From Candidatus Parcubacteria bacterium (GTDB lineage: Bacteria; Patescibacteriota; Patescibacteriia; UBA1558; GWA2-36-10): 64,000 bases of DNA. The stretch lies in contig JABHSK010000002.1 in the NCBI GenBank assembly GCA_018669975.1, forward strand, positions 5,535 to 69,534, given 5' to 3'. Below, piece by piece: positions 21,798-24,632 of the stretch (position 1 is its first letter; every line of letters begins with the position of its first letter). A program made the position numbers and the translations under genes. Below the pieces are notes generated by a model. The model did not search any database, was not told the origin of the DNA, and saw only the letters and a program-made list of their open reading frames with translations.

Positions 21798-24632
21798 TTA
21801 TTTTACTACGATGCTGATAATTCTATTTTTAATATGAATAAATTTTATCAGTTCCTTGTCCTCAATATATTTTTTTATTTTATCCTGCTCTAAAATTTGT
21901 TTTTTAATGTCTTCACTAGGCTCAGTGTCATGTGGTAGTTCAATTTCACTACGAACTTTACCATTAACCTGAATTCCAATGGTCACCAGCTCATCTTGAG
22001 CTAATTTAGCATCGTATTTAGGCCATTTTTCATGGGCCAAACTATCTTTGTGTCCCAATTCACTCCACAACTCCTCAGCCATATGTGGTGCAAAGGGTGC
22101 TAATATTAATACAAATTTTTCAAACACCTCGTTGTTTATTTTGTCTTGTTTTTCCAAAGCATTTGCCAAAATCATCAATTGGGCTATAGCTGTATTAAAA
22201 CGCATAGCTACAATATCTTCACCAACCTTCTGAATGCTCTTATGTAAAACATTGTTAATGTCTACATTATCAGCTTTTTCATCTAGCTTGTCCTGCAAAT
22301 CCCAAGCTCTATTTAAAAATCTATAAATACCAGCTACACCTTTATCGTCCCAAGCAATTGATTGATCAAACGGACCCATAAACATTTCATACATCCGCAC
22401 AGTATCTGCACCATACCTACTAACATAACTATCGGGATTAATAACATTGCCCTTAGATTTTGACATCTTGATGCCACCCTCACCTAAAACCATACCCTGA
22501 GCAGTACGCTTTTTGTATGGTTCACTACCAACCTTCTTTGGTATTACTCCAATGTCATATAAAAATTTAAAAATAAAACGAGAATACAGGAGATGCAAGG
22601 TAGTATGCTCCATGCCACCATTATACCAATCAACTGGCAGCCAATACTCGGCTTTTTTCTTATCTATTAACTCCTGATTATTTTTGGGGTCACAAAAACG
22701 AATAAAATACCAGTTAGACCCAGCCCAATTAGGCATTACATCAGTTTCTCTTCTTGCCTGACCACCACAGGACGGACACTCTGTTTTTACCCAGTCCTCT
22801 GCCTTGGCTAATGGTGATTGACCATCATCGGTTGGCTTAAAATCTTTAATATCTGGCAACTCAATCGGCAAATCATCCTCAGCCACTGCCACCCAACCAC
22901 ACTTATCACAATTAACCATCGGGATTGGCTCACCCCAATAACGTTGGCGAGAAAAAATCCAATCATGCAATTTATAATTAACAGCAGCTTTACCTAATTT
23001 ATTTTTTTCAAGCCACTTAATAATTTTTTGTTTAAACTCTGCTGTCAACAAACCATCAAATTCACCAGAATTAATAGCTCGACCCTCACCACCGTAGGCT
23101 CCATATTTATCTAAATATATCAATATACCTATTTTATTATACTCATGACTTACACTCTGTAAAGCTTCTTTTTCACTCAACCAAATTATTTCATGTTTAG
23201 CCTTTTCTGTATCAGAAATATCTTGAGCTGACTCGTCATCTAGTTCTAATAAAATAGGATTGTCCACTCGATAACGCCAAACGTCTTTATTTTCAGCATA
23301 AAAATGCTCCTCTGTTTTATTACCCAATCTTTTTATTGCCTTTGCTTTATAGCCAGTTTCTTCAAGAACTTCCCGTTCAGCAGCCTGCTCTGGTGTCTCT
23401 CCTTCTTCTATACCACCAATGACAGGTGCTAACCAATTAAATTTTTTCCATTTGAGTAATAAAAATTTGCCATCTGACTTACGTTGTATGGTAGCTGAGA
23501 TTGTCTCCCTATATTCCTCGCCATCTCTAACTTCACCGTCGACTGGCATCACCACATCCCTAATTTCGATGTTATATTTTTTAGCAAATTCATAATCACG
23601 TTGATCGTGACCTGGTACAGCCATAATCGCCCCCGTACCATAGCTCATCATCACATAGTCAGCTACAAAAATAGGTATCTCTTCATTGTTTACCGGATTA
23701 ATAGCTTTAAGACCTTTTAATTCAACACCTGTCTTGTCTTTATTTAAATCTGCTCTTTCTAAATCAGATTTCTTTTTAGCTGCAACAATATACTTTTTGA
23801 CTTCTGCTAAATTACTAATCTTGCCTTCCAATTGATGGATAGCTATGTGTTCTGGTGCTACCACCATAAAAGTAGCTCCAAATAAAGTGTCTGGTCGAGT
23901 AGTAAAAACTTCTAGTATTTCCTGACTGTCTTTTATTTTAAATTGCACTTCTGCACCTTCGCTACGACCAATCCAATCTACTTGCTGTTTTTTTATTTGT
24001 GGTAAAAAGTCTACTTGTTCTAAATCATTTATCAATCTATCAGCGTATTCTGTAATCTTGAGCATCCATTGCTCTTTTTCCTGTTTAACCACTTCCCCAC
24101 CGCAACGTTCACAGGCACCACTAACCACTTCTTCATTGGCTAGACCAATTTTACAAGAAGTACACCAATTAATATTTTCTTTAGCTTTATAGGCCAGTCC
24201 TTGTTTGTGCATTTGGATAAAAATCCACTGGGTCCAACGATAATAATCTGGATCTGTGGTAGAAAAACTTCTATCCCAATCAAAACTTAAGCCGATGTCC
24301 TTCATCTGCTTTATGTAGTTGCTTATATTTTTTTCAGTAGTTATTTTGGGTGGTGTATTTGTTTTAATAGCATAATTTTCGGCTGGCAAACCAAAAGCGT
24401 CAAAGCCCATTGGATACAATGTTTGAAATCCCTGCATGCGTTGATATCGACATAATACATCCATAGCAGTATAAGAACGTAAATGTCCGGTATGTAAACC
24501 ATCCCCAGAAGGATAGGGAAATTCTACTAAGCCATAAAATTTTTGTTTGCCTTTATCATCAACTAAAAAAGTATTGTTTTCGTCCCAATACTGCTGCCAT
24601 TTTTTTTCAATAGTATCTGCTTGGTATTTCAT
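21798..24632 (-). CDS. leuS: leucyl-tRNA synthetase with inserted Nudix-like domain
   Basis: HTGH ([10 protein letters not shown]), CP1 editing motif [19 protein letters not shown], KMSKS (IKMSKSKGN) and anticodon-binding regions all present; an extra ~130 aa carrying the Nudix box [23 protein letters not shown] sits between the HDQRDYEFA and NYKLHDW blocks. Confidence 0.95.
   Translation of the reverse strand: [944 protein letters not shown]

Follow-up and report, generated by a model that had tools for sequence, protein, structure and literature searches.

How can a leucyl-tRNA synthetase (LeuRS) hold an unrelated enzyme within its own editing domain, and what could that enzyme do there? 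The question is raised by the leuS gene of a Candidatus Parcubacteria bacterium (GenBank assembly GCA_018669975.1). The gene lies in the window analyzed here, a stretch of 64,000 nucleotides from contig JABHSK010000002.1 (positions 5,535 to 69,534). The LeuRS of the window is a complete bacterial-type enzyme, in which a surface loop of the connective peptide 1 (CP1) editing domain is swapped for an independently folding Nudix domain. This insert is apparently an active Nudix hydrolase. It belongs to a family which lives mainly in aminoacyl-tRNA synthetases (aaRS) of organisms with small genomes, i.e. Patescibacteria, DPANN archaea and some bins labeled as Bacilli.

The LeuRS of the window and its inserted domain

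The protein encoded by leuS scores 989.5 bits with the NCBIfam equivalog TIGR00396 (leuS_bact; cutoff 548.4), a match which the insert divides into two stretches. Pfam recognizes the domains tRNA-synt_1, tRNA-synt_1_2 and Anticodon_1. The alignment with LeuRS from Thermus thermophilus (Tth; 1H3N) is collinear over the full length (E 6.9e-224), and the E. coli enzyme matches with E 1.4e-187. The KMSKS signature is invariant in an alignment of 60 LeuRS sequences; the same holds for T245, R246, D248 and T249 of the T-rich editing motif and for H342, D343, R345 and D346 of the block that reads HDQRD in the window. Two further blocks, NSGEFDGL and [22 protein letters not shown], are found at amino acids (aa) 521-528 and 552-573. 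Since the editing and the synthetic motifs are invariant in this alignment, the host LeuRS looks fully functional. The enzyme is devoid of the leucine-specific domain that LeuRS from Thermus and E. coli possess; directly ahead of KMSKS (aa ~719-729), nothing corresponds to the region around Tth 592-636.

The position of the insert follows from the alignment with 1H3N. Residues 2-362 of the window protein pair with Tth 3-363 and residues 512-729 with Tth 376-591; the insert therefore replaces the loop of 12 residues Tth 364-375. It begins about 17 residues past the conserved editing aspartates and lies within CP1, the limits of which we take from the published structure to be Tth 224-417, with the numbering carried over via the 1H3N alignment. 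This placement in CP1 had not been noted in the preliminary description. The corresponding Pfam match (PF13603, aa 219-375, 207 bits) is interrupted by the insert. The distance between HDxRD and NSxxFxG illustrates the same point in relatives: it is 27-39 residues in LeuRS proteins without an insert and 179-189 in those with one.

The preliminary description of this locus, made from the sequence alone, had read the segment as a canonical Nudix module set in frame into an otherwise complete LeuRS. Pfam and NCBIfam matches, motifs, the 1H3N alignment and the fold predicted by AlphaFold2 all agree with this. The motifs it quoted (HTGH, TTRPDT, KMSKS, NSGEFDGL and the Nudix box) are present where it had placed them. 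Its coordinates for the module, 23103-23552 (aa 361-510), are nearly right and differ slightly from those of the aligned insert (Table 1), while its estimate of ~130 aa for the insert has to be replaced by ~149 aa on the basis of the 1H3N alignment. The box had also been called letter-perfect. The pattern GX5EX7REUXEEXGU is indeed complete, including REx2EE with the catalytic Glu, but its final U position is Tyr and not I, L or V, so that a strict I/L/V expression fails.

The identity of the segment as a Nudix domain is clear from the profile search and from the predicted structure. Pfam NUDIX (PF00293; cutoff 21.1) scores 49.6 bits in the whole protein and 53.5 bits in the excised segment, i.e. 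above the curated threshold; the preliminary description had named the absence of a Nudix match as a refutation of its proposal. The model of the full protein, which was computed with AlphaFold2 from an alignment of 60 sequences, has a mean predicted local distance difference test (pLDDT) value of 89.8 and a predicted template modeling (pTM) score of 0.80, with 89-96 in the blocks of the insert. The insert is predicted with high confidence to adopt the alpha/beta/alpha sandwich of the Nudix fold, rather than some other fold, and is modeled as a folded domain continuous with CP1. The best entry in its structural match list is 2AZW, a MutT/nudix protein from E. faecalis (18.9), followed by two enzymes acting on diadenosine polyphosphates: 9CXX, the diadenosine polyphosphatase Rv2985 from M. 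tuberculosis (16.3), and 1VC8, the Ap6A hydrolase Ndx1 from T. thermophilus (16.0). Further matches are 7AUI and 7TN4 (DDP1, DIPP1; about 15) and the decapping-type effectors 8DP8 and 8ZJB (14.6-15.2). The NCBIfam equivalogs for better known Nudix enzymes were not reached by the excised segment, which scored 27.1 bits for MutT (cutoff 148), 31.8 for NudB (cutoff 103) and 21-29 for the RppH models (cutoffs 116-259).

In its composition the insert resembles the gene around it (GC 0.358 versus 0.365 in the host gene). The composition of the window gene shows no break in GC or GC skew at the insert, and its boundaries carry no meaningful direct or inverted repeats. An intein or another self-splicing or mobile protein insert was considered and rejected; in the segment Pfam sees only NUDIX and no Hint or homing-endonuclease domain.

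A mobile Nudix family associated with synthetases

A full-length search in ENA, JGI, NCBI and Logan assemblies found the combined LeuRS+NUDIX architecture in dozens of clusters with 53-80% identity. The named carriers in this search were Komeilibacteria, Magasanikbacteria, Parcubacteria and Paceibacterota, and the contigs bearing the architecture reach lengths of 802 kb and 461 kb. A genome scan with an alignment of 12 Nudix sequences, in which one genome per GTDB species was used and the loci were classified by tblastn, added Berkelbacteria, Saccharibacteria, Moraniibacteriota, Buchananbacteria and Jacksonbacteria. Further additions were DPANN archaea (Pacearchaeota, and Woesearchaeota on a 420-kb contig) and a few bins labeled as Bacilli; mis-binning may lie behind the taxon labels of some metagenome-assembled bins (Fimivivens, Muribaculaceae, Bacillales). 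Since many long contigs from several sequencing sources show the architecture independently of each other, an assembly chimera, which had been considered at the outset, is ruled out.

The LeuRS on the woesearchaeotal 420-kb contig (locus L008, 3900-6779) carries a Nudix insert and is itself of the bacterial type: it scores 924 bits with TIGR00396, and only 249 bits, below the cutoff, with the archaeal model leuS_arch. The presence of a bacterial-type LeuRS together with the insert in DPANN archaea leads us to infer that the fused gene was transferred between Patescibacteria and DPANN. Three more DPANN loci (L009, L011, L033) likewise encode a bacterial-type LeuRS with a Nudix insert.

A hidden Markov model (HMM) built from the inserts separates this group from other Nudix proteins. 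Members score 124-211 bits (124-207 for the loci, 210.7 for the window insert) and other Nudix proteins at most 81 bits, a separation that holds among the fetched sequences. A search of 1.84 billion cluster representatives with this HMM gave 144 matches at E<=1e-30. Among the best 150 representatives, LeuRS proteins or fragments of LeuRS account for 112; 25 are short free proteins of at most 230 aa, and 13 are longer proteins without a match to the LeuRS HMM.

The members are highly diverse, with only ~27-60% identity to the window insert (n=115), and this diversity does not extend to the catalytic residues, in whatever setting the domain occurs. E421, E425, G427 and K449 are invariant across the 115 members; E424, G406 and W484 are nearly so, and E412 and R420 are kept in about 92-93%. 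The Tyr at the end of the box is found in 110 of the 115. A conserved aromatic pair, F444 (F/Y) and Y445 (Y/F), lies 16-17 residues beyond the box, around the X-loop. In comparison with the nearest relative of the window protein (P0121; 79% identity over the whole protein), the insert is even better conserved than the backbone (88% versus 78% identity). This combination of invariant catalytic residues with an insert conserved above its backbone is the signature expected of an enzyme under selection.

The family is also found in a synthetase of a different class. A clade of prolyl-tRNA synthetases (ProRS; class II, DPANN-type) comprises five clusters (P0368 and P0389-P0392), which are 61-100% identical and come from three data sources. 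Here the Nudix domain sits between the anticodon-binding and the C-terminal domain. The recurring partners of the family are synthetases of two unrelated classes; no other repeated partner turned up.

Next we consider where the domain sits in LeuRS. A census of the placements that could be resolved counts 126 domains at the site of the window and 18 immediately ahead of the T-rich motif (window aa ~236); the global hmmalign procedure misplaces fragments, which then appear at positions '805' or '0', and such cases are not part of these numbers. The site before the T-rich motif was confirmed as single ORFs in seven loci from Saccharibacteria. A third site, in the ZN1 knuckle (window aa ~618-623), is occupied by a few domains (P0255, P0364, P0386) and is based on local HMM coordinates. 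Some LeuRS proteins carry two or three Nudix copies (P0241, P0242, P0243, P0246). A LeuRS of 1266 aa from Moraniibacteriota (L025, 3327-7124) combines a family member at the site of the window with a Nudix domain of another type before the T-rich motif; in addition, it has an insertion of ~128 aa after CP1.

The insert and its host have different histories. In three relatives of the window protein (P0124, P0125, P0129) the backbone is 73-75% identical and the insert only 27-30%, and in two others (P0127, P0128) a backbone with 76% identity contains no insert at all. The reverse is seen in two DPANN proteins (L009, L011), where the backbone is 43-44% and the insert 52-55% identical to the window. 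Neighbor-joining (NJ) trees, which carry no support values and were used only beside these discordant pairwise identities, point in the same direction. According to this strong discordance between the insert and backbone phylogenies, the Nudix module moves independently of the host gene.

Free family genes are 53-62% identical to the window insert, and in the NJ tree (no support values) they are interspersed with the fused forms. Some of them lie beside leuS. In one locus (L004) the free copy is downstream of a leuS with only 42% identity to that of the window; in another (L039) the distance to the upstream leuS, which has no insert, is 94 nt, and in a third (L029) it is found upstream of a LeuRS-Nudix fusion. 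The LeuRS of L004 (1657-4311; 885 aa) passes the bacterial equivalog, and its C-terminal part matches positions 574-946 of 946 in the archaeal model NF008957; this LeuRS, which is followed by the free family Nudix, may have a chimeric architecture. Another form consists of a remnant of CP1 with an intact Nudix domain in a stand-alone protein of ~281-287 aa (L001, 6001-6864; L039, 4644-5489; P0016-P0020). In the L039 gene and in P0016-P0020 the CP1 remnant has HIQEH in place of HDQRD and is devoid of the T-rich motif.

The LeuRS of related Patescibacteria can also harbor other hydrolases. Ser_hydrolase and Ham1/ITPase domains are present in frame in P0186, P0222, P0145, P0229, P0233 and P0201. 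The Ser_hydrolase or alpha-beta hydrolase is placed before the T-rich motif or after CP1, and Ham1/ITPase before the T-rich motif. Some of these proteins, with a length of up to 1372 aa, combine Ser_hydrolase or Ham1 with Nudix.

Possible functions of the insert

The function we favor for the insert, at a probability somewhat short of even, is that of a hydrolase for diadenosine tetraphosphate (Ap4A) and similar dinucleoside polyphosphates (ApnN), tethered in cis to the enzyme which produces them. The weakest step in this proposal is the substrate. It is suggested by several lines of evidence taken together. The nearest characterized structures are the ApnA hydrolases 9CXX and 1VC8; the weak sequence matches include the Ap4A hydrolases from Aquifex and Lupinus; the insert has the aromatic pair in the X-loop region; and its recurring partners are synthetases only. 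According to a rule of Dunn, restated in PMC5389931, ApnA hydrolases are marked by a conserved Tyr in the X-loop that follows the Nudix box, and the aromatic pair of the insert may be its structural equivalent. Furthermore, aaRS make Ap4A and Ap4N, and Nudix enzymes are among the proteins which degrade them (PMC7705103). The preliminary description had named Ap4A together with aminoacyl-adenylates as classic Nudix substrates; the former fits the chemistry of the Nudix enzymes, while the latter do not belong to their classic substrates.

According to the favored proposal, the insert would be an active, autonomous pyrophosphohydrolase, which works while tethered to the synthetase. Its substrates would be adenylylated by-products, i.e. 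Ap4A or Ap4N formed from the enzyme-bound aminoacyl-adenylate and ATP or another nucleoside triphosphate (NTP). One polypeptide would then make and clear dinucleoside polyphosphates, with aminoacylation and CP1 editing unchanged. A precise position relative to the active sites of LeuRS would not be needed. Since several insertion sites and a free existence are tolerated, it would be the tethering and not a precise geometry that is selected.

Several observations weigh against this proposal. The substrate specificity of Nudix enzymes is notoriously hard to predict, and the spacing of the F444/Y445 pair presumably differs from that of Tyr87 in human NUDT2, if the NUDT2 box lies where we take it to be. 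The profile search against PDB sequences gave only a weak match to characterized Nudix proteins (E ~1e-8), which is driven by the Nudix box, covers many specificities and does not single out a substrate. In the literature that we searched, neither LeuRS nor ProRS was found to stand out as a producer of Ap4A. Among the ProRS clusters, P0392 has an intact box and P0391 a nearly intact one; the box of the remaining three is degenerate. Many free family copies in the loci of the GTDB-species scan are far from leuS. One gene for a CP1 remnant with Nudix resides in an island together with Ham1, NTPase_I-T, HAD, DUF402, GNAT, APH and two more Nudix genes. The presence of unrelated hydrolases at the same or nearby sites of LeuRS points to a scaffold that is generally permissive, and away from a tie to the chemistry of the synthetase. 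Finally, the top structural match, 2AZW, is functionally uncharacterized and listed as 'Undetermined' in PMC5389931.

Part of these observations can be accommodated by a more general explanation, which is the main rival of the favored one and somewhat less probable. The insert could be a generic house-cleaning enzyme, a sanitizer of nucleotides or metabolites such as non-canonical or damaged NTPs or ADP-sugars, with a function that has nothing to do with the chemistry of the synthetase. It would reside in permissive surface loops of a gene that is both essential and constitutively expressed, a location which ensures its expression and its retention in streamlined genomes. The Ser_hydrolase and Ham1/ITPase domains, which sometimes occur together with Nudix, are what one would expect from such hitch-hiking, and so are the free copies remote from leuS and the CP1 remnants without editing residues, including the one in the island of house-cleaning genes. 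The insertion sites fit as well, as they are all peripheral and flexibly linked: the entry strands of CP1, its surface loop and the ZN1 knuckle. The insert is freely gained and lost among near-identical backbones, and its distribution tracks a lifestyle with a reduced genome in two domains of life. This explanation however leaves the tight tie to synthetases unexplained, i.e. the predominance of LeuRS-linked copies (112/150), the ProRS clade and the free copies which recur beside leuS. A model with randomly chosen permissive hosts also predicts many different host proteins, and synthetases were the only repeated partner.

A bolder extension of the Ap4A proposal has to be viewed as unlikely. 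A mobile Nudix module that seeks out synthetases may have been captured repeatedly by Patescibacteria, DPANN and some Bacilli; the synthetase would become a self-contained maker and breaker of Ap4A/Ap4N or of Np4 RNA caps. It would tie the level of the alarmone to the status of amino acids and of tRNA charging in cells without ApaH or YqeK, in a manner similar to RelA/SpoT for (p)ppGpp.

It is improbable, to a still higher degree, that the insert acts on the 5' end of tRNA or other RNAs, either like RppH or by removing Np4A or NAD caps, with the synthetase serving as an RNA platform. LeuRS and ProRS both bind the acceptor end of the tRNA, where the 5' and 3' termini are side by side, and the weak NCBIfam hits of the insert are mainly to RppH models. 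These scores are however far under the cutoffs (see above), free-standing and CP1-remnant copies would have no tRNA platform, and the multiple insertion sites speak against a fixed geometry of the tRNA. Nor are the tRNAs of these organisms known to carry 5' triphosphates or caps. In favor of such an activity, Np4A caps derive from the same Ap4N pool (PMC7044304, PMC13010140).

The preliminary description had suggested that the insert, fused in cis, could proofread or clear Leu-AMP. As a mechanism, this would mean the removal of Leu-AMP or non-cognate aminoacyl-adenylates, released by the synthetic site, before transfer. The location of the insert within the editing domain, so close to the editing aspartates, and the association of the family with two editing-capable synthetases, LeuRS and ProRS, are in line with this idea. 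Nevertheless we give it very little credit. Nudix enzymes cleave pyrophosphate linkages, but aminoacyl-adenylates are mixed acyl-phosphate anhydrides and not pyrophosphate-linked; the hydrolysis of aa-AMP is carried out by HIT/Hint proteins. The editing motifs of CP1 are fully intact and therefore nothing needs replacing. A mechanism that depends on geometry is furthermore hard to reconcile with the spread of the family over three or more LeuRS sites, ProRS, free genes and CP1 remnants that have lost their editing residues.

The least probable explanation of all is that the insert does not work as an enzyme, whether it arose by chimeric assembly, is decaying as a relic or serves, without catalysis, in ligand binding or regulation. 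A few family members are substituted at E412 or R420, and the boxes are degenerate in second tandem copies and in three of the five ProRS copies, but the ORF of the window is uninterrupted, the architecture recurs on dozens of independent contigs of up to 802 kb from several sequencing sources, the composition of the insert equals that of the host gene, the box of the window is complete, the catalytic residues are invariant across ~115 diverged members and the fold is predicted confidently. The REx2EE glutamates, the lack of which the preliminary description had named as one way to refute it, are present and conserved, and the segment is a Nudix domain.

Setting in the window and comparison with known systems

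Table 1. Features of leuS and of its surroundings in the window (positions count from the first nucleotide of the window).
Feature	Residues (aa)	Position	Strand	Basis
leuS ORF, 944 aa, uninterrupted; bacterial-type leucyl-tRNA synthetase with insert		21798..24632	-	ORF list
HIGH signature HTGH	47-50	24483..24494	-	motif match
CP1 editing domain hosting the insert (= Tth 224-417)	~223-553	22974..23966	-	PF13603 and 1H3N numbering
T-rich editing motif TTRPDT, intact	244-249	23886..23903	-	motif match
[15 protein letters not shown] block with editing-site aspartates, directly upstream of insert	339-353	23574..23618	-	motif match
Nudix domain insert, ~149 aa	363-511	23100..23546	-	1H3N alignment
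Nudix box [23 protein letters not shown], catalytic metal-binding helix-loop	406-428	23349..23417	-	regex match
Place of the absent leucine-specific domain	~719-729	22440-22480	-	1H3N alignment
KMSKS signature	722-726	22455..22469	-	motif match
Membrane protein and TsaC		19988-21779 (region)	-	NCBIfam
LysM + M23 peptidase		24754-26139	+	
ORF of 559 aa		26197-27876	-	translation
tRNA-Ile, anticodon UAU		34529-34605	-	ARAGORN; Rfam

The coordinates of leuS and its motifs are collected in Table 1 together with those of the surrounding genes. Downstream of leuS on the same strand are genes for a membrane protein, which has no NCBIfam match, and for TsaC, the L-threonylcarbamoyladenylate synthase (147 bits; cutoff 123). 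The gene upstream is divergent and encodes a protein with LysM and M23 peptidase domains. The ORF of 559 aa, judged from its translation, starts with a Pro/Gln-rich stretch and a predicted membrane helix, continues with Asp-rich DxDGDG repeats (DTDGDGLPD, DTDGDGYPD) and is Cys-rich at its C-terminus; it has the look of a calcium-binding protein that is secreted or placed at the surface. The window contains a single tRNA gene, found by ARAGORN (Rfam tRNA 73.4 bits). Its UAU anticodon is unusual, as AUA is usually decoded in bacteria by a lysidine-modified CAU tRNA.

Has such a fusion been described before? The preliminary description knew of none, and we found a fusion of LeuRS or any other aaRS with Nudix nowhere in the full-text literature searched, the coverage of which is incomplete so that a prior description is possible. 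The 2017 survey of the Nudix clan (PMC5389931) mentions neither tRNA nor synthetase. The sequences as such are already deposited in NCBI, UniRef and JGI, under the names 'leucine--tRNA ligase' or 'class I tRNA ligase family protein'; in NCBI the name is often just the latter. Both parts belong to textbook families. The unusual point is their combination: a second catalytic domain is nested in an editing domain which is itself an insertion into the Rossmann fold. The evolutionary behavior of the module is unusual as well.

The aaRS are among the most conserved enzymes, which makes it unusual that an essential one bears an unrelated second catalytic center in its editing domain. In this case the center is kept in hundreds of lineages that belong to two domains of life. 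If the proposed clearance of Ap4A is correct, this LeuRS would be the first synthetase with its own alarmone hydrolase. The missing enzyme for Ap4A turnover in the candidate phyla radiation (CPR) and DPANN would be identified, and the long-debated role of Ap4A would gain a testable handle. Even if the insert is a passenger, its occurrence together with the Ser_hydrolase and Ham1 inserts would make CP1 of LeuRS a hot spot for small hydrolases parked in streamlined genomes. LeuRS is also a drug target via its CP1 site, to which the benzoxaboroles are directed.

The known bacterial LeuRS enzymes from T. thermophilus (1H3N/2BYT) and E. coli (4AQ7) share with the window protein HIGH, KMSKS, the T-rich motif and the editing aspartates, as well as the Zn knuckles and the anticodon-binding and C-terminal domains, and they are collinear over the full length. 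The difference to the Thermus enzyme is twofold: the window LeuRS has the 149-aa Nudix domain in place of Tth 364-375, and it is without the leucine-specific domain.

The Nudix domain itself can be compared with free-standing ApnA hydrolases (1VC8, 9CXX and 3I7U from Aquifex). Their identity with the window domain is only 18-23%, and the latter is embedded in a synthetase. Its family furthermore has invariant residues of its own (R375, W395, K449, R453 and W484). The E. faecalis protein 2AZW is 20% identical; it is free-standing, comes from a Firmicute and has no assigned function.

A precedent for an additional catalytic domain in a synthetase is the isoleucyl-tRNA synthetase (IleRS) with an N-acetyltransferase (GNAT) domain, which is frequent enough for NCBI to maintain an exception model (NF040702). 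As in the window LeuRS, a class I synthetase is here combined with an unrelated catalytic domain; the synthetase is however a different one and the domain is GNAT, and there is no NCBIfam model for LeuRS with Nudix.

Cooperation between synthetases and hydrolases is better known in trans. Lysyl-tRNA synthetase (LysRS) pairs in this way with Hint/HIT proteins. The Ap4A made by aaRS is a by-product that is cleared by the hydrolases ApaH, YqeK or NUDT2 (PMC7705103). In all these pairs the two partners are separate proteins; in the window the hydrolase is part of the polypeptide of the synthetase, and in other loci the family gene lies adjacent to it.

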